From NCBI RefSeq assembly GCF_029227855.1, contig NZ_CP074356.1: a stretch of DNA of 64,000 bases; one strand, given 5' to 3'. Source of the DNA: Escherichia coli (GTDB taxonomy: Bacteria; Pseudomonadota; Gammaproteobacteria; Enterobacterales; Enterobacteriaceae). A program made the translations under genes and the position numbers. Position 1 is the stretch's first letter; each line of letters opens with the position of its first letter. Below, piece after piece: positions 30,660-57,915 of the stretch. A model generated the notes under the pieces. The model was not told the origin of the DNA. It saw nothing but the letters and a program-made list of their open reading frames with translations, and made no database searches.

Positions 30660-31421
30660 ATGGCACAGGTCGCGATTATTACCGCCTCCGATTCGGGGAT
30701 CGGCAAAGAGTGCGCGTTATTACTGGCGCAGCAGGGGTTTGATATTGGCATTACCTGGCACTCAGATGAATAAGGGGCAAAAGATACCGCGCGTGAGGTA
30801 GTTAGCCACGGCGTACGTGCGGAGATCGTGCAGCTGGATCTCGGCAATCTACCAGAAGGGGCACTGGCGCTGGAGAAACTCATTCAACGGCTGGGGCGTA
30901 TTGATGTGCTGGTGAATAATGCGGGCGCAATGACCAAAGCGCCGTTTCTTGATATGGCTTTCGATGAGTGGCGCAAGATTTTTACCGTTGATGTCGATGG
31001 TGCATTTTTATGCTCGCAAATTGCTGCCCGCCAGATGGTGAAACAAGGGCAGGGTGGTCGCATCATCAACATTACGTCGGTGCATGAACATACGCCGTTG
31101 CCGGATGCCAGCGCCTACACAGCCGCTAAACATGCGCTCGGCGGGTTAACCAAAGCGATGGCGCTGGAGCTGGTCAGGCATAAGATTTTGGTGAATGCGG
31201 TTGCACCTGGGGCGATCGCCACGCCAATGAACGGCATGGATGATGGCGACGTGAAGCCCGGCGCGGAGCCTTCGATTCCCTTGCGGCGTTTTGGCGCAAC
31301 GCATGAGATTGCCAGCCTGGTGGTGTGGCTTTGTTCGGAGGGCGCAAATTACACCACTGGGCAGTCGTTGATAGTGGATGGCGGCTTTATGCTGGCGAAT
31401 CCGCAGTTCAAGCCAGAATAG
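30660..31421 (+). pseudogene. yohF: Short-chain dehydrogenase YohF with in-frame ochre codon at codon 38
   Basis: ATG at 30660, Rossmann SDSGIGK motif, then TAA at 30771..30773; same frame continues as an SDR to 31421. Confidence 0.8.
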
Positions 31422-31459
31422 CGCAGTGAGGTGCGTGGTTATTTCAATGGGTAATATTT

Positions 31460-31545
31460 GGGTAGGCATGATAAGACGCACAAGCGTCGCATCAGGCATG
31501 GTGCACCGGATGTCGGATGCGGCGCGAACGCCTTATCCTAGGCAA
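31460..31545. repeat. Tandem REP elements
   Basis: gcatgataagacgca...gcgtcgcatcaggc and ccggatgtcggatgcggcgcgaacgccttatcc between yohF and yohD. Confidence 0.65.
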
Positions 31546-31550
31546 TGGTT

Positions 31551-32129
31551 TTACGCCTGATTATCCGGCTTTTTCTTCCCGCGCCGTTTCAGCCACCAGC
31601 GCACGCCTACCACCAGAACCACGACCAGAATCAACCAGACCCAGTGCTTCAAATGCTGGTCGAGATTGTGCAACCACGGCGCAATCACCTGACCACCAGC
31701 GTAACCGATAGTGGTAAAAATCAACGCCCAGGCAAATGCGCCAAGGATATTCAGTGGCAGAAAGATTTTCGGCGGCAGCTGGCTGGCACCAATCAGCGTC
31801 GGGCCAATGACCCGAAAGCCATACATAAAGCGCGTACCAATGACAAACAGATACGGATGGCGTTGGATAAGTTTCTGCGCCCGCTCAATTTTATCCTGAT
31901 GTTTCGAGAAACGGCGTAACAGCTTGCCGCCAAACCGCCGCCCGCACAGATAAAGCACCTGGTCGCCAATCATGCCGCCAAGCGCCACAGAAAGTACCAC
32001 CAGCGGGAACTTTAATAGCCCCTGATGTGCCGCAACGCCTCCCAGCAAAGTCACGGTTTCACCTTCCGCCAGGCTACCGATCACCAGCGCGGCATAACCA
32101 TATTGTGAGATGAGTGTATTGAGATCCAT
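31551..32129 (-). CDS. yohD: DedA-family inner membrane protein YohD
   Basis: 192 aa. Confidence 0.85.
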   Translation of the reverse strand: MDLNTLISQYGYAALVIGSLAEGETVTLLGGVAAHQGLLKFPLVVLSVALGGMIGDQVLYLCGRRFGGKLLRRFSKHQDKIERAQKLIQRHPYLFVIGTRFMYGFRVIGPTLIGASQLPPKIFLPLNILGAFAWALIFTTIGYAGGQVIAPWLHNLDQHLKHWVWLILVVVLVVGVRWWLKRRGKKKPDNQA

Positions 32130-32298
32130 AGGCCAGTCTGTCTCCCTTTAGTTGCCTGTAAGCATACACCCTGTGAATAGTTCACGCTGACAAAGGACAT
32201 ACATCAGACGCTGCAAATTACATGAGCGAACAAAAAATAATCACAAGCTGACTTATACTTGAACTGTCAGGTTCATGAACTCACAACAAGGGGGCGGT

Positions 32299-32886
32299 AT
32301 GAGCCATGTCTGGGGACTGTTTTCCCATCCCGATCGTGAAATGCAGGTGATTAATCGTGAAAACGAAACGATTTCTCATCACTACACCCACCACGTTTTG
32401 CTGATGGCGGCGATTCCGGTGATTTGCGCCTTCATTGGCACTACACAGATTGGCTGGAATTTTGGCGATGGCACTATTCTGAAGTTATCCTGGTTTACCG
32501 GACTGGCGCTGGCTGTCTTGTTTTACGGCGTTATGCTGGCTGGGGTCGCGGTGATGGGGCGGGTCATCTGGTGGATGGCGCGCAATTACCCACAGCGTCC
32601 GTCACTTGCGCACTGCATGGTCTTCGCGGGCTACGTTGCAACTCCGCTGTTTTTAAGCGGTCTGGTGGCGCTTTATCCGCTGGTCTGGTTGTGTGCGCTG
32701 GTCGGCACGGTGGCGCTGTTTTACACCGGCTACCTGCTTTATCTCGGTATTCCGAGCTTCCTGAATATCAACAAAGAGGAAGGCCTTAGCTTCTCCAGTT
32801 CGACGCTGGCGATAGGCGTGCTGGTGCTGGAAGTGCTGCTCGCCCTTACCGTTATACTATGGGGTTACGGTTATCGTTTGTTCTAG
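32299..32886 (+). CDS. yohC: Yip1-family inner membrane protein YohC
   Basis: ORF 32275..32886 trimmed to MSHVWGLFSHPD.. Confidence 0.8.
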   Translation: MSHVWGLFSHPDREMQVINRENETISHHYTHHVLLMAAIPVICAFIGTTQIGWNFGDGTILKLSWFTGLALAVLFYGVMLAGVAVMGRVIWWMARNYPQRPSLAHCMVFAGYVATPLFLSGLVALYPLVWLCALVGTVALFYTGYLLYLGIPSFLNINKEEGLSFSSSTLAIGVLVLEVLLALTVILWGYGYRLF

Positions 32887-33059
32887 AAAGTTCTTTTGTG
32901 TTGCATTGCTGGCGTAAATGTCAGCAATGCAGCATTTCCTCACGATTCTCCTTTGACGATCGCACTTTTTGCTCGTTATGATGGCGTCGCTAGCCTCAGT
33001 AAATCCTTACTCCGGCGGTGCGCAACCCGTGCGCGTGAACCACTATCTGAATGCTCATC

Positions 33060-33992
33060 ATGCCGAAATTTCGAGTTTCTTTATTTAGCCTGGCCCTGAT
33101 GCTGGCTGTGCCTTTGGCACCGCAGGCCGTTGCGAAAACGGCAGCCGCTACCACCGCTTCACAGCCGGAAATTGCCTCCGGTAGCGCGATGATTGTTGAT
33201 CTGAATACCAACAAAGTGATCTATTCGAACCACCCGGATCTGGTGCGTCCGATTGCGTCTATCAGCAAATTAATGACCGCGATGGTCGTGCTGGATGCGC
33301 GACTGCCGCTGGATGAAAAACTAAAAGTGGATATCAGCCAGACGCCGGAGATGAAAGGGGTCTATTCGCGCGTACGACTGAACAGCGAAATCAGCCGTAA
33401 AGATATGCTGTTGTTGGCGCTGATGTCTTCAGAAAACCGCGCGGCGGCAAGCCTTGCGCACCATTATCCCGGTGGTTACAAAGCCTTTATTAAGGCGATG
33501 AATGCGAAAGCGAAATCGCTCGGAATGAACAACACGCGCTTTGTTGAACCGACCGGATTGTCGGTGCATAACGTTTCAACCGCCCGTGACTTAACCAAAC
33601 TGCTCATTGCCAGCAAACAATATCCGTTGATCGGGCAGTTAAGTACTACCCGGGAAGATATGGCAACCTTCTCTAACCCGACGTATACGCTGCCATTCCG
33701 CAATACTAACCATCTGGTGTATCGCGATAACTGGAATATTCAGTTAACCAAAACCGGCTTTACCAATGCGGCGGGCCATTGTCTGGTGATGCGTACGGTT
33801 ATCAATAATAAACCGGTGGCGCTGGTAGTGATGGACGCGTTTGGCAAATATACCCATTTTGCCGATGCCAGCCGCCTGCGTACCTGGATTGAAACCGGTA
33901 AAGTGATGCCTGTTCCGGCAGCAGCGTTGAGCTATAAAAAACAAAAAGCCGCCCAGATGGCGGCGGCGGGGCAGACGGCACAGAACGATTAA
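33060..33992 (+). CDS. pbpG: D-alanyl-D-alanine endopeptidase PBP7
   Basis: ORF 33051..33992 trimmed to MPKFRVSLF..; SxxK (SISK) and SEN motifs. Confidence 0.9.
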
Positions 33993-34030
33993 ATGAATGA
34001 CGGATGGCGATACTCTGCCATCCGTAATTT

Positions 34031-35746
34031 TTACTCCACTTCCTGCCAGTTTTTCCGCTTACTGGTTTTACCGATCCCCGGATTCATGCTGTTGGTCGGA
34101 TCGTTCTCGCGATAAAACTTCTGCAACGTCTCCGGTGCTTTATACAAATGACCGACGTTATGCTCGGCAGGGTACTGCGCGCCGCGCTGCTGTAGCAGTT
34201 CCAGCATCTGTTCTTTCAACGCATGCACATCCACGCCTTTTTTAACGATGTAATCCTGATGGAAGACATAGCACATAAAATGGCCGTAATAGAGCTTGTG
34301 CACCAGCTGGCTGTCGATGTCCGGCGGTAAATGCTCATACCACTCGGTGTCGTTACGCCGCAGAGCGATATCCAGTGCCAGAATGTCTTCGACTTCATCG
34401 GAATGCACCGCCTGATAACGAATTGCTGCGCCCGCAGCGGCGAAACGGTGTAAAAACGCTTTGCTACCTTCCTCCGGCGTACAGACAAAGAAATCGCCTT
34501 CGGCCTGTTTGAAATAATCCACCAGCCACGATTTGGCTTCACCGACGCCATCGCCCGCCATTTTTAACAGCAGATGATGCTCGTATTTATCGCGCCAGTT
34601 TTTCATGCGCGGCGGTAAATGGCTGGGGAACAGGTGACCGAATTTTTGCATCGCACGGTCGGTAAAATGCGGACGGAAGAATTTCACTTTCTCCAGCATC
34701 GCATCGGTGCGCCCCTTGAGATTAAAGAAGAACGGCATCTTGTCGGTGCCTAACTTATCAATCATCAGGAAGGTGTCTTTGCCGTATTTTTCCGCAATAT
34801 CGTAGATATCCCGGTGCATATATTCCCCGGCAACCGGCAGATTTTCGAAATTAGCCAGAATATGACGGCGGATTTCGGTCAGCACTTCCGGCTGGTTGGT
34901 ACCGATATAAAACACCTGCTGATTTTTTTCCGCTTCGAAGGTATCAAGACGTACCGCAAAGACGGCCAGCTTCCCGGCGCAACCAGAAGATTCAAATAAC
35001 CGATCCGGATCGGCGTTATAACGTGCGGGCGTGTCGGCTTCAATATCACGAACGCGGTGGACATAGTCATAATCGTGGGCGTGACGACCATCGTGACGCA
35101 CATCGTCATCTTTGATGCGATCGTCATCCAGCTTGCTAAGGATCTGCTCCGGCGTTTCGCCGAGCTCAATCCCCAGATGGTTCACCAGCGTCAGCTTGCC
35201 ATCTTCATTTATACGCGCGAATAACGACATTTCGGTATACGCCGGGCCACGTTGCACCAGTGAACCACCAGAGTTATTACAGATACCGCCGATAACCGAT
35301 GCGCCTATACACGATGATCCAATCACCGAGTGCGGTTCGCGTCCCAGCGGTTTGAGGGCTTTTTCCAGCGAATAGAGCGTGGTGCCCGGATAGGCCAGCA
35401 CCTGTTCGCCCTTGCCAAGAACGTGCAGCTTGTCGAGACGCAGGGTGCTGATGATCACGATATCGCGATCATAGTCGTTACCGTTTGGCGTCGAGCCTTC
35501 GGTCAGACCTGTATTGGCAGCCTGCATCAGAATAATTTTGTCGGCGGTGACGCAGGCTTTCAGCACCCGCCACAATTCCAGTAGTGAGCCAGGGAAAACG
35601 ACAGCCAGTGCGTCGCCCTGACCAGAACGGAAGCCCTTGCGATAGCGGGCCGTTTTTGCGGGATCGGTGAGCAGGTGTGAAGAACCCACCAGTCGGGCAA
35701 GTTCATTCAAAAAGGCTTTATTATCAGTTGTTGTCATGGAAGACAT
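34031..35746 (-). CDS. dld: FAD-dependent D-lactate dehydrogenase
   Basis: ORF 34031..35779 trimmed to MSSMTTTDNK.. (571 aa). Confidence 0.95.
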   Translation of the reverse strand: MSSMTTTDNKAFLNELARLVGSSHLLTDPAKTARYRKGFRSGQGDALAVVFPGSLLELWRVLKACVTADKIILMQAANTGLTEGSTPNGNDYDRDIVIISTLRLDKLHVLGKGEQVLAYPGTTLYSLEKALKPLGREPHSVIGSSCIGASVIGGICNNSGGSLVQRGPAYTEMSLFARINEDGKLTLVNHLGIELGETPEQILSKLDDDRIKDDDVRHDGRHAHDYDYVHRVRDIEADTPARYNADPDRLFESSGCAGKLAVFAVRLDTFEAEKNQQVFYIGTNQPEVLTEIRRHILANFENLPVAGEYMHRDIYDIAEKYGKDTFLMIDKLGTDKMPFFFNLKGRTDAMLEKVKFFRPHFTDRAMQKFGHLFPSHLPPRMKNWRDKYEHHLLLKMAGDGVGEAKSWLVDYFKQAEGDFFVCTPEEGSKAFLHRFAAAGAAIRYQAVHSDEVEDILALDIALRRNDTEWYEHLPPDIDSQLVHKLYYGHFMCYVFHQDYIVKKGVDVHALKEQMLELLQQRGAQYPAEHNVGHLYKAPETLQKFYRENDPTNSMNPGIGKTSKRKNWQEVE

Positions 35747-35941
35747 TTTCCACTCCTTGTGGTGGCGAAAAAATATCACAAACTAGAATAGCGCCTTGTA
35801 TGACAATTCAGCGAGTGAATATTTTGAAAATTCAGACAATAAACTGAGCATTCTTTTTCTCTCTCCATCATGCTTATGGCAAACTACGGTTTTTGCACCA
35901 TTTTCGCTGCCTCGTCGGGCAACAGAGGAAGAAAAATCCAT

Positions 35942-38239
35942 ATGAAATGGCTATGTTCAGTAGGAATCGCGGTGAGTCTGGCCCTGCAGCCAGCACTGGC
36001 GGATGATTTATTCGGCAACCATCCATTAACGCCCGAAGCGCGGGATGCGTTCGTCACCGAACTGCTTAAGAAAATGACAGTTGATGAGAAAATTGGTCAG
36101 CTGCGCTTAATCAGCGTCGGCCCGGATAATCCGAAAGAGGCGATCCGCGAGATGATCAAAGACGGGCAGGTTGGGGCGATTTTCAACACCGTAACCCGTC
36201 AGGATATCCGCGCCATGCAGGATCAGGTGATGGAATTAAGCCGCCTGAAAATTCCTCTTTTCTTTGCTTACGACGTGCTGCACGGTCAGCGCACGGTGTT
36301 CCCGATTAGCCTCGGTCTGGCCTCGTCTTTTAACCTCAATGCGGTGAAAACAGTCGGGCGTGTCTCTGCTTATGAAGCGGCAGATGATGGCCTGAATATG
36401 ACCTGGGCACCGATGGTCGATGTCTCGCGCGATCCGCGCTGGGGACGTGCTTCCGAAGGTTTTGGCGAAGATACGTATCTCACCTCAATAATGGGTAAAA
36501 CCATGGTGGAAGCGATGCAGGGTAAAAGCCCGGCAGATCGCTACTCGGTGATGACCAGCGTCAAACACTTTGCCGCTTACGGCGCGGTAGAAGGCGGTAA
36601 AGAGTACAACACCGTCGATATGAGTCCGCAGCGCCTGTTTAATGATTATATGCCGCCGTACAAAGCGGGGCTGGACGCAGGCAGCGGCGCGGTGATGGTG
36701 GCGCTGAACTCGCTGAACGGCACGCCAGCCACCTCCGATTCATGGCTGCTGAAAGATGTTCTGCGCGACCAGTGGGGCTTTAAAGGCATCACCGTTTCCG
36801 ATCACGGCGCAATCAAAGAGCTGATTAAACATGGCACGGCGGCAGACCCGGAAGATGCGGTGCGCGTGGCGCTGAAATCCGGCATCAACATGAGTATGAG
36901 CGACGAGTACTACTCGAAGTATCTGCCTGGGTTGATCAAGTCTGGCAAAGTGACCATGGCAGAGCTGGATGACGCTGCCCGTCATGTACTGAACGTTAAA
37001 TATGATATGGGGTTGTTTAACGACCCGTACAGCCATCTCGGTCCGAAAGAGTCTGACCCGGTGGATACCAATGCCGAAAGCCGCCTGCACCGCAAAGAAG
37101 CGCGTGAAGTGGCACGCGAAAGCCTGGTGTTGCTGAAAAACCGTCTCGAAACGTTACCGCTGAAAAAATCAGCCACCATTGCGGTGGTTGGGCCACTGGC
37201 GGACAGCAAACGTGACGTGATGGGAAGCTGGTCCGCAGCCGGTGTTGCCGATCAATCCGTGACCGTACTGACCGGGATTAAAAATGCCGTCGGTGAAAAC
37301 GGTAAAGTGCTGTACGCCAAAGGGGCGAACGTCACCAGTGACAAAGGCATTATCGATTTCCTGAATCAGTATGAAGAGGCGGTCAAAGTCGATCCGCGTT
37401 CGCCGCAAGAGATGATTGATGAAGCGGTGCAAACCGCGAAACAATCTGATGTGGTGGTGGCTGTGGTCGGTGAAGCTCAGGGGATGGCGCACGAGGCTTC
37501 CAGCCGTACCGATATTACTATTCCGCAAAGCCAACGTGACTTGATTGCGGCGCTGAAAGCCACCGGTAAACCGCTGGTGCTGGTGCTGATGAACGGGCGT
37601 CCGCTGGCGCTGGTGAAAGAAGATCAGCAGGCTGATGCGATTCTGGAAACCTGGTTTGCGGGGACTGAAGGCGGTAATGCAATTGCCGATGTGTTGTTTG
37701 GTGATTACAACCCGTCCGGCAAGCTACCGATGTCCTTCCCGCGTTCTGTCGGGCAGATCCCTGTGTACTACAGCCATCTGAATACCGGGCGTCCGTATAA
37801 TGCCGACAAGCCGAACAAATACACGTCGCGTTATTTTGATGAAGCTAACGGGGCGCTTTATCCGTTCGGCTATGGTCTGAGCTATACCACTTTCACCGTC
37901 TCTGATGTGAAACTTTCTGCGCCGACCATGAAGCGTGACGGCAAAGTGACCGCCAGCGTGCAGGTGACGAACACCGGTAAGCGCGAAGGGGCGACGGTAG
38001 TGCAGATGTACTTGCAGGATGTGACGGCTTCCATGAGTCGTCCGGTGAAGCAGCTGAAAGGCTTTGAGAAAATCACCCTGAAACCGGGCGAAACTCAGAC
38101 CGTCAGCTTCCCGATTGATATTGAGGCGCTGAAGTTCTGGAATCAACAGATGAAATATGACGCCGAGCCTGGCAAGTTCAATGTCTTTATCGGCACTGAT
38201 TCCGCACGCGTTAAGAAAGGCGAGTTTGAGTTGCTGTAA
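35942..38239 (+). CDS. bglX: Periplasmic beta-glucosidase (GH3)
   Basis: ORF 35870..38239 trimmed to MKWLCSVGIAVSLALQPALA signal peptide (765 aa). Confidence 0.95.
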   Translation: MKWLCSVGIAVSLALQPALADDLFGNHPLTPEARDAFVTELLKKMTVDEKIGQLRLISVGPDNPKEAIREMIKDGQVGAIFNTVTRQDIRAMQDQVMELSRLKIPLFFAYDVLHGQRTVFPISLGLASSFNLNAVKTVGRVSAYEAADDGLNMTWAPMVDVSRDPRWGRASEGFGEDTYLTSIMGKTMVEAMQGKSPADRYSVMTSVKHFAAYGAVEGGKEYNTVDMSPQRLFNDYMPPYKAGLDAGSGAVMVALNSLNGTPATSDSWLLKDVLRDQWGFKGITVSDHGAIKELIKHGTAADPEDAVRVALKSGINMSMSDEYYSKYLPGLIKSGKVTMAELDDAARHVLNVKYDMGLFNDPYSHLGPKESDPVDTNAESRLHRKEAREVARESLVLLKNRLETLPLKKSATIAVVGPLADSKRDVMGSWSAAGVADQSVTVLTGIKNAVGENGKVLYAKGANVTSDKGIIDFLNQYEEAVKVDPRSPQEMIDEAVQTAKQSDVVVAVVGEAQGMAHEASSRTDITIPQSQRDLIAALKATGKPLVLVLMNGRPLALVKEDQQADAILETWFAGTEGGNAIADVLFGDYNPSGKLPMSFPRSVGQIPVYYSHLNTGRPYNADKPNKYTSRYFDEANGALYPFGYGLSYTTFTVSDVKLSAPTMKRDGKVTASVQVTNTGKREGATVVQMYLQDVTASMSRPVKQLKGFEKITLKPGETQTVSFPIDIEALKFWNQQMKYDAEPGKFNVFIGTDSARVKKGEFELL

Positions 38240-38248
38240 TGCTTTAGT

Positions 38249-38274
38249 AAGGGCGCGACGTTTGCGCCCTTTGC
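38249..38274 (+). terminator. Rho-independent terminator downstream of bglX
   Basis: aagggcgc-gacgttt-gcgccctt stem-loop plus T-run. Confidence 0.7.
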
Positions 38275-38313
38275 CTGATGTTCATATCTTAACTTGCTGA
38301 ATTTTCGCCCTTT

Positions 38314-38350
38314 GTAGGCCGGATAAGGCGCTCGCGCCGCATCCGGCAGG
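38314..38350. repeat. REP element
   Basis: gtaggccggataaggcgctcgcgccgcatccggcagg. Confidence 0.75.
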
Positions 38351-38490
38351 AAACGCCGGACCGAATATGCCTCTTAAGTATTTATCTGATTCTGCAACTG
38401 AATCCTTCCGCTCAGGCTAACCCCGCCATTATCAACTATGCTTTTCTCTTAATTCGCTGAAAACAACAGTAAAAGAATGAGGAAAGCATC

Positions 38491-39408
38491 ATGCCACTCT
38501 CAAAGGTCTGGGCAGGTTCACTGGTTCTGATGGCAGCCGTGAGCCTGCCGCTACAGGCGGCTTCCCCCGTTAAGGTCGGTTCAAAAATCGATACCGAAGG
38601 CGCGCTGCTCGGCAATATCATTTTGCAGGTGCTGGAAAGTCACGGTGTTCCTACGGTAAATAAAGTGCAACTGGGAACGACTCCCGTGGTGCGCGGGGCG
38701 ATTACTTCCGGTGAACTGGATATCTATCCGGAATATACCGGCAATGGCGCGTTTTTCTTTAAAGATGAAAACGATGCGGCATGGAAAAATGCCGGGCAGG
38801 GCTACGAGAAAGTCAAAAAGCTCGATGCAGAGCAAAACAAGTTAATCTGGCTGACGCCCGCACCTGCGAATAACACCTGGACCATCGCCGTGCGTCAGGA
38901 TGTGGCAGAGAAAAACAAACTCACTTCGCTTGCTGACCTGAGTCGTTATCTGAAAGAGGGCGGCACCTTCAAACTGGCTGCCTCAGCAGAGTTTATCGAA
39001 CGCGCCGATGCGTTACCCGCGTTTGAAAAAGCCTATGGCTTTAAGCTCGGTCAGGATCAGTTGCTGTCACTGGCTGGTGGCGACACGGCGGTGACGATCA
39101 AAGCCGCTGCCCAGCAAACCTCTGGCGTTAATGCGGCGATGGCTTACGGCACTGACGGCCCGGTCGCGGCGCTGGGGCTGCAAACCTTAAGCGATCCGCA
39201 AGGCGTGCAACCTATCTACGCGCCTGCACCAGTGGTGCGTGAGTCGGTGTTGAAAGAGTATCCACAAATGGCACAGTGGTTACAGCCAGTCTTCGCCAGC
39301 CTCGATGAAAAAACATTGCAGCAACTGAATGCCAGCATTGCTGTGGAAGGACTGGATGCCAAAAAAGTGGCTGCCGACTACCTGAAACAAAAAGGGTGGA
39401 CGAAGTAA
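38491..39408 (+). CDS. osmF: Glycine betaine/osmoprotectant-binding periplasmic protein
   Basis: 305 aa with signal peptide; first gene of osmF-yehYXW ABC operon. Confidence 0.9.
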   Translation: MPLSKVWAGSLVLMAAVSLPLQAASPVKVGSKIDTEGALLGNIILQVLESHGVPTVNKVQLGTTPVVRGAITSGELDIYPEYTGNGAFFFKDENDAAWKNAGQGYEKVKKLDAEQNKLIWLTPAPANNTWTIAVRQDVAEKNKLTSLADLSRYLKEGGTFKLAASAEFIERADALPAFEKAYGFKLGQDQLLSLAGGDTAVTIKAAAQQTSGVNAAMAYGTDGPVAALGLQTLSDPQGVQPIYAPAPVVRESVLKEYPQMAQWLQPVFASLDEKTLQQLNASIAVEGLDAKKVAADYLKQKGWTK

Positions 39409-39414
39409 TTTCCC

Positions 39415-41491: not shown

Positions 41492-41495
41492 GCGT

Positions 41496-42227
41496 ATGAA
41501 GATGTTGCGCGATCCGCTGTTCTGGCTCATTGCTCTGTTTGTGGCGCTGATTTTCTGGCTGCCTTACAGCCAGCCGCTGTTTGCCGCCTTGTTCCCACAA
41601 CTGCCACGACCCGTTTATCAGCAAGAAAGTTTTGCAGTTCTGGCACTGGCTCATTTCTGGCTGGTGGGAATTTCGAGTTTGTTTGCGGTGATCATTGGTA
41701 CTGGTGCCGGAATTGCTGTCACTCGCCCTTGGGGCGCGGAATTTCGCCCACTGGTGGAAACTATTGCCGCCGTTGGACAGACTTTTCCGCCCGTCGCGGT
41801 GCTGGCGATTGCCGTTCCGGTGATCGGCTTTGGTCTGCAACCCGCGATTATCGCCTTGATCCTTTACGGCGTGCTGCCCGTCCTGCAGGCAACACTTGCC
41901 GGGCTGGGAGCGATTGATGCCAGCGTGACAGAAGTTGCGAAAGGTATGGGAATGAGCCGTGGTCAGCGACTGCGTAAGGTCGAGCTACCGCTGGCGGCTC
42001 CGGTGATTCTGGCGGGCGTGCGAACTTCGGTGATTATCAACATTGGTACGGCGACGATCGCCTCAACGGTAGGGGCCAGCACGCTGGGTACGCCGATCAT
42101 CATCGGGCTTAGCGGATTTAATACCGCGTATGTGATCCAGGGGGCGTTACTGGTGGCACTGGCGGCGATCATTGCAGACCGCCTGTTTGAAAGGCTGGTG
42201 CAGGCGCTTAGCCAGCACGCAAAATAA
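41496..42227 (+). CDS. yehW: Osmoprotectant ABC transporter permease
   Basis: 243 aa. Confidence 0.9.
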
Positions 42228-50007: not shown

Positions 50008-52231
50008 GGAAAACTCCCCAGTGTTGCAGCGATGCCAGTGCCTGCTGTTCGAGTTGTTGATGATGTGCAATGGCTTGTGGTGGACAATGCAACGGCATTT
50101 GCAGCGCTGAAACGGGAAGCTGTGCGAGCTGGTAATGCTCAAGCACCTGATGCGCCAGCGTCCCGCGTTCTCGTGGTGGTAGCCAGGCCATCGCTGCGCG
50201 TAAATCGGGCAGGGCGTTAATAAAATCGTCGTCACTCAGTTGATTTAAATGACTACTGAAACCGGCGATAAATGCCGGCTGACAGGCCAGTTGATGGCGG
50301 GCCAGCGCCAGCATCGTCAGCGCCGCTTCGGCACTGGCGTTGGGATGTTCCAGACGCATTAGTGCGCCAAGAGCCGCGCTGCGATCCAGCGCCGGGGCAT
50401 GAATCGCCTGACTGCGGCGCTCCAGTAAGGCTACCGCCGCAGAAAGCGAAACGCCGGGTAAATTAACGCCGCTATGTAGATCGCGCAGGATATGGCAAAG
50501 CGCCTGCCAGCTATGCAGGTGAGCGTGAAACTCCTTTTCCTCCGGTCTGCCGTTGGATTCACACAGCCAGAGTGTGCGATCGATAGCCGCGCATAACGTC
50601 GTCTGTAATATCTGCGCGCCTTGCATACCGCTAATTTCATCCAGCCGCCATAAGGCGTATAGCACTTCCAGCGCCTGGCCCATTTCGGCAAACTGATTTT
50701 CCTGGGCGATTAATAATGTAAGTTGCTCCAGTAATTGTTGACTGAAGGACGCCAGACCCGCTAACGCCGCCTGGCTAAGACATGTGGTGATACTGCCGAT
50801 TCCACCCGCGTCCAGCATATCGGCTTCTAATTTATTGCGTGCGGCTTCCTGGAGTGTGGCACCAAAGCAGGCGGCCTCAATCAATGCCGCATGCTGGCTA
50901 AGCGGGCGGGTTAATTTCCAGCGTTCTTCACCGTTGCCTGCAAGTGTCAGTGTGCTTCCCTGCTGGCGTACAATCCCTGGGATCTCCAGTATTACCAGCC
51001 GATGTAACACCTGACTTTGCGCCAGTCCATCGGGGGTAAAGCGATTTAAGGTAAGCTCTGCCGGAAGAGAGATTGTGGTACGTTCCAGTTCGCAGGTGAC
51101 ATCTTTTGGCAGAGGCGGCTGTGGCGTAGAGGGGGCAAGTTTACCGAATCCGCCACCCGCTAATGTGTCTATCAACGTTAGCAGAATCGGATCGGTATCG
51201 GGATGAATAACGCCGCGATAGCTCCACGGCAACGGCGCGTTCAAGGCTTCTTTAATCAGCGAGCCTGCTATGGCATCCAGCCAGTCAGTGCGTAACGGTA
51301 GTGTATGACCGCGCAACTGTGCCAGCGCCATCGCATGCAGATGAGCGGCAGCCATATCAGCGGTAGAAGCGGGCAATTTGTGCTGGCGCAAACGGGTAAG
51401 GATAGTTTTTAGCAGTTGTTCACCGGCCTGCTGTAGGCCCCACTGCCAGCACCAGTTTTGCCAGACCGGGGCAGGCATACCAGAAAGGTATCCTGCCAGC
51501 ACATCAAGGCGCTTTTCACTGTAGGGGGTGAGATAACAACCTGTAACGGCATCTGCCAGCTAGGGCAATTCCGGCGTGTTAATTTCCTGCGTGTATTCGC
51601 GCCACATCTTTGCCAGTGCCGGAGCATGCCAGCCGCCGCAGACGACTAACACGTCGCCATTGTTTTGCTGCATCGCCCATCCAATCCAGCGGGCCATAAA
51701 GGCTTCGCGCTGACGATTGAGGGCATCTCCGGGGGAATCGCCCCGCAGTTGTGCAAAATAGTGCGCCAGCGCAGAGGGTAATGCAGTTTGCTGGCTTTCA
51801 TCTTCGAACAAGTGATCCCACAGGGTGTCGCTGTTATCCATGCGGGTGGCACGCAGCAGTAAGGTCTGGCTGTCATCTTGCGTATCGGGTGATTCGTCTT
51901 CTTCTTCACTCTGCGCCCAGCAAGGCAAATCGATGAAGTAAGTTTGTGCCTGAATACGACGTGCGGCTTGTAGCGCCTGCCACTCCGGCGAAAATTCAGC
52001 AAATGGCGTCCAGGCACCACGCCCGGGGGCTGCACCGTCCTGATACTGGCAATAACTGTAAATAGCTACCGGAAGCTGGTGGGCTAAAAACAGTTCGTCT
52101 ACCCGGTCATTAAAATCAGCCGGGCCTTCAATCAACACGTATCGTGGCCGCTGGCTTTCGATTAACGATTTCACCAGCCGGGCGCAGGCCGGACTATGAT
52201 GCCGGATGCCGACAATTAACGGCTCGCTCAT
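50000..52231 (-). pseudogene. yehM: YehM, interrupted by a single in-frame amber codon
   Basis: ORFs 51560..52399 and 50000..51502 are in the same frame, separated only by TAG at 51560..51562; start MSEPLIVGIRHH at 52231 with GAGGAAAG RBS. Confidence 0.7.
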
Positions 52232-52241
52232 GCATCTTTCC

Positions 52242-53319
52242 TCACGGCAGGCGGTGGCGGGCTTGATAATAAGCCTGCCAGTGAGCTTCTTTATGTGTGG
52301 CGACACGCTGTTCGAAGTAACGGCGCAGACGCGCGCGATCTTCTTCGTTATCTTTAACGATGGTTCCGGCAATACAGTCCACCAGATCGGCTGGCTCACC
52401 TGCGCGATTCGCTAAAAACCAGGCGCGGACGCCCACTGCGTGGGCCACGTTCACGGCTTCAGCGGTGGATATAATTGCCGTCAGAGTATCCATTGACGTT
52501 TTCTTTTCGCCGTTGGCACGCAGATCGCGGAAGGTGCGGACCAGTAACTCCAGTACCGCGTCAGGCACTTTATGCGGAATACCGCTATGGGCCAGCAAAC
52601 GCGCCGAAGCACTGGCGACCAGTTCCAGCTCCTGGGCGAAATCCATAATCGGAAAGACGGTTTCAAAATCGAAGCGACGCTTTAGCGCGGCACTCATCTC
52701 ATTGACGCCGCGATCGCGGGTATTGGCAGTGGCAATAATATTAAAGCCTTCCCGCGCATAGAGCTGACTGGCTTCACCGGTGAGTTCCGGCACCGTCATC
52801 ACCCTGTCAGAAAGCATACCTAACAGACAGTCTTGTACTTCCAGCGGTGTACGCGTTATCTCTTCAAAACGGACGATTTTGCCGTCGCGCATTCCCTGGT
52901 AAAGCGGGGCAGGGACCAGTGCTTCCGTAGACGGACCATGGTTGATAAGCAGGGCGTAGTTCCATTTGATCTTCAGTAGTAGATGCGCCGCCCTGGATGG
53001 TTAACCCGGCATCGCCGCTAATAGCGGTTGCCAGTAATTCAGACAGGAGAGATTTTGCGGTGCCCGGTTCCCCCACCAACATCAAACCGCGCCCGGTGGC
53101 AAGAGTGACTAACATACGTTCGACAGCGGAGGGACTAATCACCACTTTACGGCTAATATTTTGCGCGCTATCGCCAAGGATAAAAGCACGGGCCGCAGGC
53201 AAACTTAACTGCCAACCGGGCGGGCAAGGTGCGTTATCATTTTGTTTTAATTTTGCCAGTTCATCGGCGTATAACACAGCAGCAGGCGGACGCTGCAGAT
53301 GATTATTCTGCGGTGACAT
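52242..53319 (-). pseudogene. yehL: MoxR-type AAA+ ATPase YehL, frameshifted
   Basis: Walker A GEPGTAKS lies in ORF 52864..53385; continuation ([26 protein letters not shown]) is in another frame from about 52965; total span 1078 nt is not a multiple of 3. Confidence 0.7.
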
Positions 53320-53431
53320 ATATTCATCCCTGAAATGTATTAATGAAATAAACGATATTTTACGCGCAATAAATGTTTGGCGCATTAGTTGTTTGAGCGA
53401 AAAATATCTGGAAAGCAGATCACAGTAAATA

Positions 53432-53466
53432 AAAAAACCTGCTGGTGAGGCAGGTTCTTTTATTTA
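53432..53466. terminator. Bidirectional rho-independent terminator
   Basis: aaaaaaa-cctgc-tggtgag-gcagg-ttctttt; A-run and T-run flank the stem, so it works in both orientations. Confidence 0.6.
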
Positions 53467-53513
53467 CTATTTTCAGGCCCAACACCGCAGCCTGTGCAAC
53501 ATCGTGTTCCAAC
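53432..53513 (-). ncRNA. Candidate antisense antitoxin sRNA (OrzO-like)
   Basis: Minus-strand -35 TTGCAA (53548..53543) and -10 TATAAT (53525..53520) put the start near 53513; first 18 nt are complementary to 53662..53679 in the toxin 5' UTR at 17/18; ends at terminator 53432..53466 (about 81 nt). Confidence 0.4.
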
Positions 53514-53519
53514 GAACGA

Positions 53520-53570
53520 ATTATAACCATCGGTGGACCCCGTTGCAATTAAGATAATGAGATTTATAAT
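53520..53570. promoter_or_regulatory. Divergent sigma70 promoter pair sharing a palindromic -35 TTGCAA
   Basis: Plus strand: TTGCAA (53543..53548), 16-bp spacer, TATAAT (53565..53570). Minus strand: the same TTGCAA, 17-bp spacer, TATAAT (53525..53520). Confidence 0.55.
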
Positions 53571-53751
53571 CCAGACGGTTGGGACGTTGCGCCGGATCGG
53601 ACCAATTTTAAGTCCTGGCTACCGGACGGGTGGTGCTGCAGGTGGTGCCCTGATCCGGAGTGCAACATCGTGGTCCAACATACGTAAACCAGTATCGACA
53701 GGCAGTGTAAGGGTAAGGTGCTGGTGTTGCGCTCCTTAATAAGGAGAGCGG

Positions 53752-53841
53752 ATGGACACGCTGACACAAAAGTTAACCGTGCTCATTGCCGTACTGGAGC
53801 TATTAGTGGCTCTGTTACGGTTGATTGATTTGTTGAAGTAA
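53752..53841 (+). CDS. zorO: Type I toxin-like small hydrophobic peptide (ZorO-like, 29 aa)
   Basis: AAGGAG RBS at 53741..53746 then MDTLTQKLTVLIAVLELLVALLRLIDLLK; single amphipathic helix like TisB/DinQ-type toxins; not recalled at this position in K-12. Confidence 0.6.
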   Translation: MDTLTQKLTVLIAVLELLVALLRLIDLLK

Positions 53842-53863
53842 TGGGCAAATTGAAACGCATCTA

Positions 53864-53887
53864 AGGGGGAATACCGTTTCCCCCTTT
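53864..53887. terminator. Stem-loop between convergent zorO-like ORF and yehK
   Basis: aggggga-ataccgtt-tccccct followed by tttaataaagctattttt. Confidence 0.5.
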
Positions 53888-53894
53888 AATAAAG

Positions 53895-54215
53895 CTATTT
53901 TTCTATTTCTTGGTTGAATATATTCTGTAGTTCGCGATTAAAAATGGCTATTACCGTTTCTGGTGATTCGCCCCGTAATTTTCGCTCATCAATAAACTCA
54001 TCTCTTATATAAATCAACGCATCATTTATTAGCGGGTCGACATCCTCTCGATCACGTTGATGAAATGTTGGATGTAGCCGGAATCGCTCCAGTCGGTAGA
54101 CGGAACCTGTAAATAATTCAGAGCATTTATGGATCTCAAGTCTGAAGGAAAACGGATCTTCAGGTACAGGGACCTCATAATCGTAAATAGCAACCAGCTC
54201 TTTTTGCACGATCAT
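53895..54215 (-). CDS. yehK: Uncharacterised protein YehK
   Basis: 106-aa ORF downstream of yehI. Confidence 0.65.
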   Translation of the reverse strand: MIVQKELVAIYDYEVPVPEDPFSFRLEIHKCSELFTGSVYRLERFRLHPTFHQRDREDVDPLINDALIYIRDEFIDERKLRGESPETVIAIFNRELQNIFNQEIEK

Positions 54216-54275
54216 CGCTTTTCCCGGTGGCAGGTCGTGTTAATAACGGGCAGTCGCATCACTGCCCGCTGTGTT

Positions 54276-57200
54276 TTAATGGAAAATGACGTCGGGTGCG
54301 CTTAACGCTTCACTCAAATCAAACACATCAAGTTCGGCAAAAGTGACAGATTTATTGTCACGGTATACATGAAGAGAACGGAAGCTCATTAGCGCTTTGC
54401 TATCAACATTGTAGTGGTTAAAACCGGATGAAAACTTAAGGACCAGCCGGTACTCGCCCAGGTCATAGACAAATGCATTCTCATAGCCTGACTCCCAGCC
54501 TTTGTATCGCATTCCCATAAGTTGCCCAACGGTAGCAGATTTACCTTCCCAGCGATTCAAACTATTACTGGCTGACTCGTCAGGCGTGAGCAGTACTGTG
54601 CGCCGTGCCAATTGGCGAAAAGGCGGCATAATTTCGTAATCGGCAAAAAGCTGTGCAAACTCACTGCGCATTTCTGCTGCCATTTCTAACGGGTGGGCAA
54701 TGCCAATCAGAGCATCGGCAGGCAGGTCAATTGGCTCATCTTGCTCATTGCAGAACTCCCCCTCAGCGGCCACACGAAAGGCGTTGAGTAAACGACGCGG
54801 TTCATTTGCCGGATAAACACCCCATATTAATCGCTGAGTAACCAGACGGGTAAAGGGATGATTAACAAACAGAGAATGAAAATCTGCCAGCGACCAGCGT
54901 CGGGTGGTGCGCAGGGCAGTTTCAAGACGCGGGAGCAGGTTTTTGCTCACCTGAGTGGCATCTTTTTTTAGCCCTTTTAGTCGGGCCAGTGCCTCGGGTG
55001 CTTTCAGTTGATCGTCATCGGCGCGCAACCGGGGAACGCTTTTCTGGCGAACGTTTTGCTGATCAAAGATAACCGGGTTAAGGTTTTCATCGAAGCGAAC
55101 GGTAAATTGCCGTGGACCAAAATCAAAAATCAACGCCTGCGGATCATCAAGACCCAGTGTTGGGACTAATCTGTCCGCTAACTGTTCCTGGCTTAGCCCT
55201 CGATTTTCTGCGACCACCTGAAGAAATTCCGCCGCGTTATCACGTAAGGGGCGGGATTTCGCCCGTTGCGATATATGATGCAGCTGTATCAGTGCCATAT
55301 CATTATTCATCTGAGTAAGTATGTTCAGGCCGCTGACGGCACGGGCAGATTTGCCTTCCTGTGGCCAGGCAAGGATCTGTGTCGTCAGATCCCGTGCCGT
55401 GCTTTCGTCGCCAAAGAGACTTAACGCCAGAAATGCCCAGTTGTCTTTTGCGGGAGCACCAGCTTGTTGCCACGCGGTGAAAAGATCCCAGGCAAAAGCT
55501 GCCAGCGTTTGCGGCTGGCAGAAAGTTTTCAGTTGTTCCAGTCCGCTATAAACGTCCGCCCTGGGTAAAGCGCAGCATTTCGCCGATAATTTCCAGTGCG
55601 TCATCGGTAACAGGCTGATTATTCGTGATAAGGCGCGGCCTGGACCACATTGCCGGCTGCCAGAAATCAGGGGCTTTTGGAATGCGTGTCGGGTAAATCT
55701 CTATTGGACTCTGTTTAAGTAAATGCTCCAGGGCAGGCCATACATCTGTACGCTGCCAGCGGTTTGCCGCGGTTTGCAGCAATTCACCATGTCCCTGTTC
55801 GTAAAGTAAACGTAGGGCAAGTAATGCAGCTTCGCTATTATCGCTGGATTTGGTGAAGACAAGAGGGATAAGTGCAGTAGCCGTATGTTCCGGCCATTGT
55901 AAAATCCACTGGCGAGCCAGATCACGCTGCGCCGCGAAACGTCGCCAGACGCGGGCAACGGGCAGGGCCAGTTCTGTTGCGCCAAAATTTAAAATTAACG
56001 GAAATGTTTCTTTTGGACGATATGAAAAAGCCAACAGCAGACCTGGTAGAGCATCCAATCCGAAGATACTGAGAAAATAGTCCTCACCCGCTAACAGATG
56101 CTTTTTCTCATTGATACGTAGCCAGAAAGTCAAAGCCATCTCACGCGGCAACTGTGCCAATAAATACAGGTTCCAGATACTCTTTTCCCGACGATAGCGT
56201 GAGTAGCTGTCATTTTCCCATATGTTAATTAACACTTCTACGTGACCGCTGCGAAGCGCCTGTTCTGCTAATTGTGCTTCCGGGGAGTTCCAGCCATTCA
56301 GGATCTCTTCAACCCGCCCCTGGTAGTAATGCCACTGAACAATGAGTGAATTGCGTGCAGCATCCAGTTTTCCGGGGAGTATATAATTCAGAAACAGCCA
56401 TACATCATCTCCAAAACCCAGCTCCTGTAGTACAACTCGTCCACTTTTATGTTCCATGCGTTCCGAAAGAGATTCCGTGCTGAAATAACGGGCAGACTCA
56501 GTGGCGGCAAGCCTCTCTCGTTCGCCTGGTTGCCAGTAAACTTGCGGCGTTAATTCGAACGGTGCCAAATCAAGACGTGGAACTGTCATTTTTTTCTTAC
56601 TACGCCACGGTGGTGAAACGAGGATTTCAGGCATTTGGCTGTTATCGGTGCTATCAATAACCGTTTTAGGCGGTGCCGATAAATAACTATTCAGCACTGA
56701 CCGGGCTTGAGTACTTAACCACGGCATCACCTCTTCTGCCAGTTGTGGCTGCGATGCCATCAGCGTTTGTAACAGCGTACGCCAGTATTCATCACGTGCT
56801 TTTTGCTGTGCAGGCAGCTTTTTGTCTTCGATGATTGGATAACCAGGGCGCGTAGGTGGTTCTTTTAGCGCCAGCAGTTCTGCCAGTGCGGCAAGCGTCG
56901 CATGGGGGAAATTTTTACTGTATTTAGCTACACGTTGCAGGCTGGGTTTGTTTTTATCAGCAACTAACAGCAGGGTGCGGATGACCTGCGGATGGTTAAT
57001 TTGTACCAGCAGACTGCCGCAATCTTCTTTATGGGCATACATTGCCAGGCGTGGAACGGCTGCCAGTCCTTGTTCGCGCAAAAGGGCAGCGCAGGCCGCG
57101 TAGCCGAAGTGGTTTTCATGCGACATGTAGCTGGCTTCCCGATCGCTAAATATATCCTGGCTCCAGTAGCGTTCGAGTTTTCTCACCGCTCTGGGGTCAA

Positions 57201-57906
57201 TAGCAACAACTTTTAACCACTCCTTAGAATGAAAATGAGTCCACGGGCATTCAAGGCTTACCAACTCATTGGCGATTTCTGGTTTTTCCGGGAGGATCAG
57301 AGCAATAAAAGGGCGGCGAACTTTGGTTATTCCTGGCAGTGCGGCAATGAGTTTGTCGGCGCAACGCTGCCAGCTGCTTTCCTCTGCCAGAGAGAGATGC
57401 TTACGCAGTCGGAGATCGAATTCGTTATAGGTTTCTGATCGATAACCATAGCCATAATCCTCGTTCTGATACTGCAATGTCACTAGCAGAGGATCACTTT
57501 CATAACATCGTGTAATAAACTGGCGTGCAATCACCACCTCAGTCGCATATTCCAGTCCCTCTTGTTGGACGATTTCGTCGAGCAACTGTTGGCTATCATT
57601 TTGCGCGATACAGGCTAGCGCCGCCATTGTCCGGGCCGGAACTGAGGGTTTGTGTTCGCCAATCAAGTTGATGGCCTGCGTAATGGCCGACTGCCACTCC
57701 AGTGAAAAATTTTCATAACGCCAGACAATGTTTTTTTTCTTCTCAGCTTTTTGTAGCAATTCATCACCCAGTGTCTGGATGAGGCTTTCAGTGATAACAG
57801 GCACCGGTTCGCCCGGCCAACTGCGATGGCTGAGCGGCGTTTTGCCTTTTTTATATTTCAGTTCCACTTGGGCGTTATCCGCCAGCCACGGTAATTCCTT
57901 GTCCAT
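54276..57906 (-). pseudogene. yehI: YehI (DUF4132 family giant protein), frameshifted
   Basis: ORF 55546..57906 (786 aa) and ORF 54276..55604 (442 aa) overlap in different frames; together they align end-to-end with the intact neighbouring paralogue. Confidence 0.65.
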
Positions 57907-57915
57907 GCTCTTTCC

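Follow-up and report, generated by a model that had tools for sequence, protein, structure and literature searches.

MoxR AAA+/VWA partner systems include RavA-ViaA, CbbQ-CbbO, NorQ-NorD and GvpN. The yeh cluster of Escherichia coli resembles these systems in that YehL is an AAA_5/MoxR-like protein and the VWA_CoxE protein YehP is encoded two genes downstream, whereas the other yeh partners, YehM, YehQ and the DUF4132/WGR proteins, have no characterized function or substrate. In the genome analyzed here, Pfam AAA_5 matched the YehL fragments and VWA_CoxE/VWA_2 matched YehP within one cluster, and YehL also showed weak matches to GvpN and midasin AAA. No experiment showing chaperone or remodelling activity on a client was found. 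No solved relatives were found for YehM (DUF5682), YehQ (SWIM) or the DUF4132/WGR proteins, and no PADLOC-DB v2 family matched YehL, YehM, YehP, YehQ, YehI, YehK or WGR-DUF4132 at E-values up to 0.01. The module comprises yehL (MoxR-type AAA+), yehM (DUF5682), yehP (VWA), yehQ (SWIM) and yehK together with the DUF4132 paralogues, yehI among them, and at least yehL and yehM are repressed by H-NS.

Gene decay in this neighborhood can be compared with three descriptions. In K-12, yehH/molR, a DUF4132 paralogue in the yeh cluster, and mdtQ are small-lesion pseudogenes with routine RefSeq annotation; here, mdtQ and the yehH equivalent are intact, and yohF, yehM, yehL and yehI are broken instead. 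As Kuo and Ochman reportedly described in PLoS Genetics in 2010, bacterial pseudogenes are mostly young, strain-specific and finally deleted. The present locus follows such dynamics, with a yohF ochre codon and a yehI frameshift at the tip level in few isolates and further decay added to older lesions, but two of its lesions cross lineages via a recombination tract and not by vertical descent alone. In Shigella sonnei lineages 2 and 3, yehM, yehL and zorO are deleted (PMC12795559). The same module is lost here; however, S. sonnei, a host-restricted pathogen whose genome is widely decayed, lost it through a ~7-kb deletion, whereas point and small-indel lesions on a low background load were found in our genome.

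The window, which is the whole analyzed stretch of 64,000 nucleotides (contig NZ_CP074356.1), was 100% identical to E. coli JNEC-KY178 (NZ_AP045174.1, 1755715-1819714). Lesions were mapped at the base level by gene-wise alignment to K-12 and M217. The initial annotation had reported yohF, yehM, yehL and yehI as broken among about 50 whole neighbors. The alignments confirmed all four genes, each of which retained full-length similarity to an intact orthologue with a stop or frameshift, and the RefSeq/PGAP pseudogene flags already in place matched their coordinates. The remaining ~49 CDS of the window carried no pseudogene flag. Three of the four broken genes lie in the yeh cluster, as had been stated, and yohF is separate (Table 1). 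Each gene had been described as broken by a single small event, which did not hold for yehM, where a 48-bp in-frame deletion forms a second lesion. This deletion and a private yohF substitution at 31412 had been overlooked.

Table 1. Positions of the analyzed features in the window.
Feature	Position	Strand	Description	Basis
yohF	30660-31421	+	Pseudogene, SDR-family oxidoreductase	PGAP internal stop
yehQ (SWIM)	46874-48874	-	Intact ORF, lineage-native side of junction	RefSeq; Pfam SWIM
yehP (VWA)	48871-50007	-	Intact ORF, lineage-native side of junction	RefSeq; Pfam VWA_CoxE
yehM	50000-52231	-	Pseudogene (DUF5682), chimeric	PGAP internal stop
yehL	52242-53319	-	Pseudogene (MoxR-like AAA+ ATPase, AAA_5)	PGAP frameshifted
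zorO-orzO	53431-53841	OrzO RNA 53431-53506 (-); ZorO ORF 53752-53841 (+)	Type I toxin-antitoxin pair, yehK-yehL spacer	
yehK	53895-54215	-	Intact, protein identical to that of the M217-type clone (WP_000636924.1)	
yehI	54276-57906	-	Pseudogene (DUF4132)	PGAP frameshifted
WGR+DUF4132 paralogue	57916-61710	-	Intact ORF	
Third DUF4132 paralogue	From 61723 past window end	-	Intact ORF	
Recombination tract	51154-64000		Continues ~1.46 kb past window, ~14.3 kb total	SNP-density profiles

In yehM, codon 224 was changed from TCG to the amber codon TAG (51560-51562; plus-strand G>T at 51561), and 48 bp were deleted after 50304 between the 9-bp direct repeats GCGCCAGCA. The 11-bp deletion in yehL (junction 52964/52965; K-12: GATCAAA[TCAAGTATGGC]TGGAAC) parts the Walker A motif from the rest of the ATPase and leaves ORFs of 151 aa and 216 aa. 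A 2-bp deletion shortened a plus-strand A5 run of yehI to A3, now at 55550-55552 (T5 to T3 on the gene strand), and yields 786-aa and 442-aa ORFs. In yohF, G>T at 30771 relative to K-12 changed codon 38 from GAA to the ochre codon TAA (30771-30773), and the second substitution at 31412, private to JNEC-KY178, results in N251K. The five lesions are ordinary spontaneous events: both nonsense mutations are G:C>T:A transversions, the yehI deletion is a slippage within a 5-base run, the 48-bp yehM deletion lies between 9-bp repeats, and yehL lost 11 bp. None of them is a 1-bp homopolymer slip.

Exact probes separated the lesions by distribution among 5,426 complete genomes. The yehM amber 61-mer was present in 214 and the yehL junction 60-mer in 215, whereas the yohF ochre 61-mer, the yehI deletion probe and the full yehM 48-bp junction probe each matched this genome only. 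The same annotation of the amber codon and the 11-bp deletion was found in M217 and in four more carriers originating from three continents; all five have an identical 1078-bp yehL pseudogene and intact yehI, yehP and yehQ. Fragments of yehL were found on at least 1000 contigs. The exact yehI products were each found on about 7 contigs (7-8), the 786-aa product in Logan only and the 442-aa product in NCBI and Logan. At the base level, the yehI deletion was confirmed in Logan contigs L004-L006 and L013, and sibling L012 aligned gap-free. The 48-bp junction was also present in L004, and a sibling isolate carries a 492-aa YehM fragment corresponding to this deletion. The yohF ochre codon was present in L008-L011 and absent from sibling L007; the sibling without it has every yeh lesion.

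The yehM and yehL lesions lie within a tract that was 99.96% identical to the M217-type clone, with 5 SNPs and the yehI 2-bp deletion as its differences, and its flanks differed from this clone at 1-5% of sites. Inside the tract (51154 to ~65460), 0-2 SNPs per 500 bp were counted; outside it, the counts rose to 4-28 per 500 bp on its left side and to as many as 12 per 250 bp on its right. The tract is bounded on both sides by an abrupt change in divergence and is nearly identical within, the pattern of a mosaic segment. The left junction lies inside yehM at 51153/51154: the 5' part (51154-52231), with the amber codon, comes from the tract common to the M217-type clone, and the 3' part (50000-51153), with the 48-bp deletion, is lineage-native. 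The YehQ and YehP protein accessions also differ from those of the clone. No junction at 51154 appeared between M217 and K-12, the junctions being visible only in the JNEC-KY178 lineage.

The tract haplotype was found only in the M217-type clone and the JNEC-KY178 lineage, and reverse transfer is therefore possible. No close relative without the tract was found for this lineage or for the clone side, nor was a version of the tract haplotype free of the amber codon and the 11-bp deletion. The background genome had no close relative among the complete genomes, where the best identity reached 98.7% over window positions 1-25000 and 99.2% over a core region in another part of the genome. We infer that the JNEC-KY178 lineage was most probably the recipient and that the genes it imported were dead before the transfer.

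The lesions form a nested series in time. The amber codon and the 11-bp deletion are shared, the yehI 2-bp and yehM 48-bp deletions are restricted to this lineage among complete genomes, and the yohF ochre codon is the youngest, a very recent knock-out unrelated to yeh decay. In the order of events, the yehM amber codon and the yehL deletion arose in the haplotype of a now globally spread clone. Homologous recombination, with one crossover inside yehM, then most probably placed this 14.3-kb haplotype in the JNEC-KY178 lineage, which later gained the yehI slippage and the repeat-mediated yehM deletion. An independent G>T nonsense mutation finally killed yohF in a sub-branch of the lineage. The yohF dN/dS was 0.04, and the gene is therefore normally well constrained; its loss is a young strain-level null of a kind common at bacterial tree tips. 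The four lesions are real mutations of different ages, and there is a good probability that they result from two unrelated processes: recurrent loss of the yeh module and an independent yohF null. Three textbook processes, namely stepwise module erosion following a first hit, recombinational spread of dead alleles and a tip-level null, meet within 27 kb, with a crossover inside a pseudogene (yehM) during the spread of dead alleles between lineages. The overall result is ordinary biology and unsurprising to specialists.

Loss of the yeh cluster was not confined to this lineage. Twelve other genomes, a small set, were sampled at even spacing, and in 8 of the 12 the cluster was independently damaged by different lesions: frameshifts, stop codons, one deletion associated with IS1 and one internal deletion. 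Three of the eight share one common yehK frameshift, two of these three having identical YehQ, YehP, YehM and YehI, and the frameshifts of ZH177, also among the eight, could be sequencing error. Strain 2017.02.04CC had an IS1 truncation in the cluster, and strain P276M matched over less than 1% of the query. The long-term dN/dS of the yeh genes was 0.05-0.18, compared with 0.00-0.10 in their neighbors; these values are well below 1, and the genes are therefore usually kept and still form a real functional system. The cluster was also highly polymorphic, with 4-6% divergence between haplotypes.

Relaxed selection on this region in this lineage had been proposed in the initial annotation. A weak hold on the yeh module agrees with this proposal, but it is too narrow as a lineage-specific effect, since the amber codon and the yehL deletion lie in a tract common to a widespread clone and other strains are eroded too. 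It is also not region-wide, since the housekeeping genes that separate yohF from the yeh cluster are unbroken and under strong constraint and the yohF lesion is separate and absent from one sibling. The yeh module is probably a conditionally useful system that is lost again and again in E. coli lineages, and its remaining parts would drift after the death of one part. Weak or intermittent selection would cause this loss, although the same data are also compatible with selection for loss, and the death of one component would relax selection on the other yeh genes. This "domino" decay is visible in part only, with yehP, yehQ, yehK and two DUF4132 genes intact here and in the clone; these genes may retain a function of their own. 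The combination of long-term purifying selection and frequent loss in the yehLMPQ/DUF4132 cluster offers a hint for finding the conditions where this H-NS-repressed system matters.

The best-surviving alternative, which we nevertheless regard as unlikely, is that yeh loss was adaptive: inactive alleles would have been favored through costly or toxic expression, or plasmid or phage interference, and the dead haplotype would have risen with a clinical clone and then been captured as beneficial. This haplotype does occur in a large, globally distributed clone and passed whole, in one direction or the other, between it and a second human clinical lineage. Loss of yeh recurs by many routes, and divergence of the degree seen between yeh haplotypes is frequent at conflict-related loci. 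However, the same lesion shows no parallel recurrence, the frequency of the dead haplotype is equally well explained by hitch-hiking with a successful clone, and the tract also brings intact genes, so that the target could be something other than the dead alleles. The long-term dN/dS far under 1, with genes usually kept, and the lack of any match between a yeh protein and the known and candidate defence families of PADLOC also argue against adaptive loss. Slightly more doubtful still is the specific proposal that the dead yehL/yehM haplotype was advantageous, swept with the clinical clone and was captured through homologous recombination by an unrelated clinical lineage, in which yehI was later inactivated too. 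If true, the yeh MoxR/VWA/SWIM/DUF4132 cluster would be a conflict or stress system that is costly to keep, and selection in human-associated E. coli would repeatedly favor its loss.

The background of this genome was assessed from five 50-kb samples elsewhere (~253 CDS). A frameshift or internal stop in an otherwise complete gene was found in 1 of ~253 background CDS and in 4 of 53 here. The chance of at least four in 53 genes was ~6e-5 at the background rate and 0.017 at its upper 95% bound, assuming independent events; the four lesions are not independent, two being inherited together and three lying in one gene cluster. The excess of broken genes in the window is real. Most pseudogene flags in the background samples were old IS, Rhs or prophage remnants. 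It is very improbable that the whole lineage is a decaying genome or a mutator, like host-restricted Shigella-like lineages, and that this region merely samples general decay. Both nonsense mutations are G:C>T:A, a class raised by defects in oxidative-damage repair, and IS110 and IS200 copies lie near the region. Against this stand the low background rate, the absence of point-lesion pseudogenes in the 50 kb right of the window and the distance of only 0-8 SNPs between sibling isolates per 4-21 kb compared; moreover, of the two transversions, that behind the yehM amber codon originated in another lineage's haplotype.

Even less credit is due to the reading that the genes still work as split subunits or are rescued by programmed frameshifting, stop-codon read-through or a suppressor tRNA. 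Gene callers do predict proteins from the fragments, whose ORFs are long, and the 48-bp deletion keeps the yehM frame. However, the ATPase of YehL is cut between its Walker A motif and the remaining AAA+ domain, and a restart product after the yohF stop would lose the N-terminal nucleotide-binding motif. Lesions also pile up, yehM and yohF having two each, and all 5 tract SNPs between JNEC-KY178 and M217 alter an amino acid, which fits drift and not maintained function.

Assembly or sequencing error, such as long-read indels or substitutions, had been the other explanation offered and has practically no probability left: although yehI has its lesion in a short homopolymer, the yehI and yohF lesions are unique among complete genomes and the yohF 31412 change is present in one assembly alone, all five lesions (the 48-bp deletion included) were identical in independent read-derived assemblies from at least four accession series (Logan contigs of SRR14933781/85/87, SRR18105866, SRR24058701 and DRR794474) and in ENA assembly GCA_946060445.1, so that sister isolates show each lesion with base-level identity, and two of the lesions occur in 214-215 complete genomes. 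The proposed homopolymer check pointed to yehI alone, as a loss of two bases in a run of five; errors do not typically take the form of this event, of the 11-bp and 48-bp deletions or of the two transversions, and frameshifts are almost absent from the rest of the assembly. The error reading is refuted for the four reported lesions and the assembly is sound; the lesions are biological, and the region needs no sequence correction. The single-base change at 31412 was seen in the JNEC-KY178 assembly only.

The ZorO toxin has a size of 29 aa (PMC6669753). The spacer between yehK and yehL contains an OrzO RNA (Rfam RF02083, 101 bits; gathering score 60) with an adjoining ZorO ORF of 29 aa, which together form a zorO-orzO pair that is absent from the RefSeq annotation. 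In addition, the WGR+DUF4132 gene has gained D872N and D760N since the split from a sibling isolate.

The four genes that the initial annotation described as broken (yohF, yehM, yehL and yehI) were exactly those flagged as pseudogenes by RefSeq, with matching coordinates. The neighbouring genes were intact as described, with no further CDS flagged in the window. Window segments 1-25000 and 30000-50000 both matched the chromosome of JNEC-KY178, a clinical isolate of human origin from Japan, at 100% identity, which puts the window at 1755715-1819714 of NZ_AP045174.1. The lesions were placed by alignment to K-12 MG1655 and to M217, a member of a clone that carries the same yehM amber codon and yehL deletion.

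Coordinates of the pseudogenes, their lesions and other features in the window
Feature	Position	Strand	Description
IS110-family transposase gene	27337-28362		between dusC and yohP; no annotated IS there in K-12
mdtQ	29171-30607		intact, 478 aa; pseudogene in K-12
yohF pseudogene	30660-31421	+	RefSeq 'internal stop'
yohF lesion	30771		codon 38 GAA>TAA (G>T)
Peptidase-S11 cis-regulatory RNA motif	32975-33055		upstream of pbpG; Rfam RF03039, 72.8 bits
yehM pseudogene	50000-52231	-	RefSeq 'internal stop'
yehM lesion	51561		codon 224 TCG>TAG (plus-strand G>T)
yehL pseudogene	52242-53319	-	RefSeq 'frameshifted'
yehL lesion	junction 52964/52965		11-bp deletion
zorO-orzO type I toxin-antitoxin pair	53431-53841		yehK-yehL spacer; absent from the RefSeq annotation
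OrzO RNA	53431-53506	-	Rfam RF02083, 101 bits
ZorO ORF	53752-53841	+	intact, 29 aa (MDTLTQKLTVLIAVLELLVALLRLIDLLK)
yehI pseudogene	54276-57906	-	RefSeq 'frameshifted'
yehI lesion	55550-55552		2-bp deletion in 5-base run (A5>A3, plus strand)

None of the lesions was a 1-bp homopolymer indel. Homopolymer error was rejected as an explanation on the base-level alignment. Two further changes had been overlooked. yehM carries a 48-bp in-frame deletion after 50304, between 9-bp direct repeats, so the description of each gene as broken by a single small event does not apply to yehM. In yohF, a C>G substitution at 31412 (N251K) was private to the JNEC-KY178 assembly, with C in K-12 and in all sibling isolates of the lineage, including DDBJ run DRR794474. 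This change is either a post-inactivation mutation or a single-base assembly error.

JNEC-KY178 and M217 were compared across the right part of the window. From 51154 to the window end and 1.46 kb beyond (about 14.3 kb), they differed by five SNPs and the yehI 2-bp deletion (99.96% identity). Directly left of 51153, 39 SNPs were found in 1.25 kb, and divergence was 1-5% further left; right of about 65460, divergence from M217 resumed. The left crossover (51153/51154) lies inside the yehM pseudogene. Outside the tract, no complete genome was a close relative; identity peaked at 98.7% for both window 1-25000 and window 30000-50000, and at 99.2% for a core region lying 1.7 Mb away. In a three-way SNP profile, M217 had no discontinuity against K-12 at 51154. 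The simplest reading of these alignments is that the rare JNEC-KY178 lineage imported the 14.3-kb segment from the abundant clone, in which case the yehM amber and the yehL deletion would have arrived already broken. Transfer in the reverse direction is possible, because the tract haplotype was found in these two groups only. Whichever the direction, yehM is a chimera of a 5' part with the shared amber and a lineage-native 3' part with the private 48-bp deletion.

Each lesion was placed at the centre of a short exact probe, and the probes were run against 5,426 complete E. coli genomes. The yehM amber was detected in 214 genomes and the yehL deletion junction in 215. The yehI 2-bp deletion, the yohF ochre and the yehM 48-bp deletion junction were each detected in one genome, JNEC-KY178. 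Many matches of at least 99% to the 48-bp deletion probe were rejected as carriers, because they covered only one side of the junction; one hit, in 2017.02.04CC, was full-length but was an unrelated yehM truncated by IS1. We inspected M217 (Myanmar) and four other carriers, drawn at even spacing from the 215 (Czech Republic, two; Tanzania; Brazil). All five had the same two annotated pseudogenes, yehM and yehL, and nothing else. yehI, yehK, yehP and yehQ were intact in all five, and YehP, YehQ and YehK were protein-identical among them. Therefore, these carriers represent a tight, globally spread clone.

In the sibling ENA assembly GCA_946060445.1, every yeh lesion was present, yohF was intact (253 aa, G at 30771), and the M217 base was retained at three tract positions. 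Together with the probe distribution, these states give a relative order of events. The yehM amber and the yehL 11-bp deletion, in either order, came first, followed by the yehI 2-bp and yehM 48-bp deletions, then the yohF ochre, and finally the private yohF change at 31412.

Some 19 kb separate yohF from the yeh cluster, a stretch that contains about 16 intact, well-constrained genes, and the dN/dS of yohF itself was 0.04. The ochre removes everything past the N-terminal nucleotide-binding motif and was confined to a sub-branch of the already rare JNEC-KY178 lineage. The best interpretation of this ochre is a young null mutation, unconnected with the yeh lesions.

To survey the cluster in other strains, twelve genomes were taken at regular intervals from the ranked list of all matches to the segment from yehQ to WGR-DUF4132. 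At least one annotated cluster lesion was present in 8 of the 12. The cluster was intact in JNEC-KY171, NT1F25, FDAARGOS_1285 and PS1Phumofeces1. Frameshifts in yehM and yehI were found in ZH177, a yehQ frameshift with a DUF4132 stop in SD134209, and a yehI stop in EC-TO75. A26, 884 and 327_BP0021 carried a yehK frameshift, with a truncated DUF4132 also in 327_BP0021. This frameshift looks like one shared event; YehQ, YehP, YehM and YehI were identical between 884 and 327_BP0021. WS4437A-1 had a DUF4132 stop and an internal deletion reaching from yehM to the neighbouring DUF4132 gene, with loss of yehL and yehK, and Ec42 had an IS1-associated loss of yehLMPQ and a yehI frameshift. In addition, yehH/molR is a pseudogene in K-12, and less than 1% of the cluster query was matched in P276M. 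Deletion of yehM, yehL and zorO has been described in Shigella sonnei lineages 2 and 3 (PMC12795559). The cluster (46874-61710) was also unusually polymorphic, most genomes being 90-95% identical to this haplotype and about 98% in flanking core genes.

The dN/dS values against K-12 were 0.05 for yehL, 0.065 for yehP, 0.08 for yehK, 0.10 for yehM, 0.12 for yehQ and 0.18 for yehI, and 0.00-0.10 for fourteen intact flanking genes. These low values indicate that purifying selection acted on the yeh proteins through most of their history, somewhat more weakly on yehI, yehQ and yehM, and that the breaks are recent. All five tract SNPs against M217 alter an amino acid, three of them in yehI, which is dead, and the other two in its WGR-DUF4132 neighbour, which is still intact, a suggestive fit, at five SNPs, to weak or intermittent selection. 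The relaxed selection in this lineage proposed in the initial annotation was right in direction but has to be restated: the weakly held unit is the yeh module, and damage to it occurs in many other strains of E. coli. Two of the lesions are not lineage-specific, being common to another clone via the recombination tract, and the weakly held unit does not extend to yohF, which is unrelated to the yeh lesions.

Adaptive loss of the yeh module would agree with the frequency of the dead haplotype and with its crossing between lineages. However, hitch-hiking and drift account for the same facts, and we therefore consider adaptive loss improbable. Read-through or split subunits are unlikely to keep the genes functional; the lesion positions argue against it, and lesions are still accumulating.

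A mutator background or decay of the genome as a whole is also unlikely, since sibling isolates were near-identical and the background sample was clean. This sample comprised five 50-kb pieces around the JNEC-KY178 chromosome (about 253 CDS) and contained 13 pseudogene flags. Twelve of them mark incomplete remnants of IS, Rhs, prophage or other genes, and only one, a 142-bp hypothetical, is a frameshifted gene that is complete in other respects. Under this background rate, at least four such genes among the 53 in the window have a probability of about 6e-5, or 0.017 when the upper 95% bound is used; even with that bound, the probability of three broken genes among the seven yeh genes is 2e-4. 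This is a real excess, although it is concentrated in a single gene cluster and does not consist of independent events. The broken genes are ordinary bacterial genome biology, visible already in the RefSeq annotation.

Exact look-ups of the truncated protein products were made in a collection holding some 15 billion predicted proteins. The YehI 786-aa fragment was found in 7 contigs (Logan read-based assemblies only), the YehI 442-aa fragment in 7 contigs (NCBI and Logan), and the YehL and YehM fragments in at least 1000 contigs. The predicted YohF 197-aa C-terminal fragment had no exact match in the collection because the siblings' product differs at residue 251, and the predicted YehM 500-aa C-terminal fragment had none because the gene caller took another start, giving 492 aa. 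The YohF and YehM lesions were confirmed in siblings through look-ups of neighbouring genes instead. Retrieved contigs (SRR14933781, SRR14933785, SRR14933787, SRR18105866, SRR24058701, DRR794474 and GCA_946060445.1) were 99.93-100% identical to the window and gap-free. Those spanning the sites reproduced the lesions base for base, except yohF in GCA_946060445.1. With these independent assemblies and a background nearly free of frameshifts, the assembly errors offered as the other explanation in the initial annotation are excluded.

YehL is an AAA_5/MoxR-like ATPase that weakly matches GvpN and the AAA modules of midasin, YehP a VWA_CoxE protein and YehM a DUF5682 protein; YehQ had a faint SWIM match. 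YehI and its two paralogues belong to the DUF4132 proteins, and an N-terminal WGR domain is present in two of them. NCBIfam gave sub-threshold weak matches only for YehL and YehP and none for YehM, YehQ or YehI. In the PDB sequence search, YehL matched only the generic AAA module of midasin, and YehM, YehI and YehQ had no relative. No yeh protein matched PADLOC defence models, and literature on yehL/M/P/Q, DUF4132, DUF5682 and MoxR/vWA/SWIM held incidental mentions only. By likeness to other MoxR-VWA pairs, for which YehL and YehP supply the two proteins here, the module probably works as an ATP-driven system for remodelling or assembly. YehL is interrupted by the 11-bp deletion just past its Walker A motif, so ATPase activity should be lost.

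yehQ (46874-48874) encodes 666 aa here and in most sampled strains and 614 aa in K-12, so the K-12 reference appears truncated. The three tandem DUF4132 paralogues (57916-64000 plus yehI) are yehI, one encoding a 1264-aa WGR+DUF4132 protein and a third running off the window. At the 5' end of the second (about 60900-61700), some 15-25% of sites differ from K-12 yehH, far above the rest of the cluster; this paralogue gained D872N and D760N after the split from the sibling.

The zorO-orzO pair lies inside the recombination tract, and the yehK-yehL spacer is about 306 bp in K-12, 575 bp here and about 1180 bp in other strains. pphC is annotated as frameshifted in M217 (43877-44639 of its sequence, L020) and is intact in JNEC-KY178, which illustrates the background scatter of strain-specific pseudogenes. 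The mdtQ allele is specific to the JNEC-KY178 lineage and served as the handle for finding siblings.
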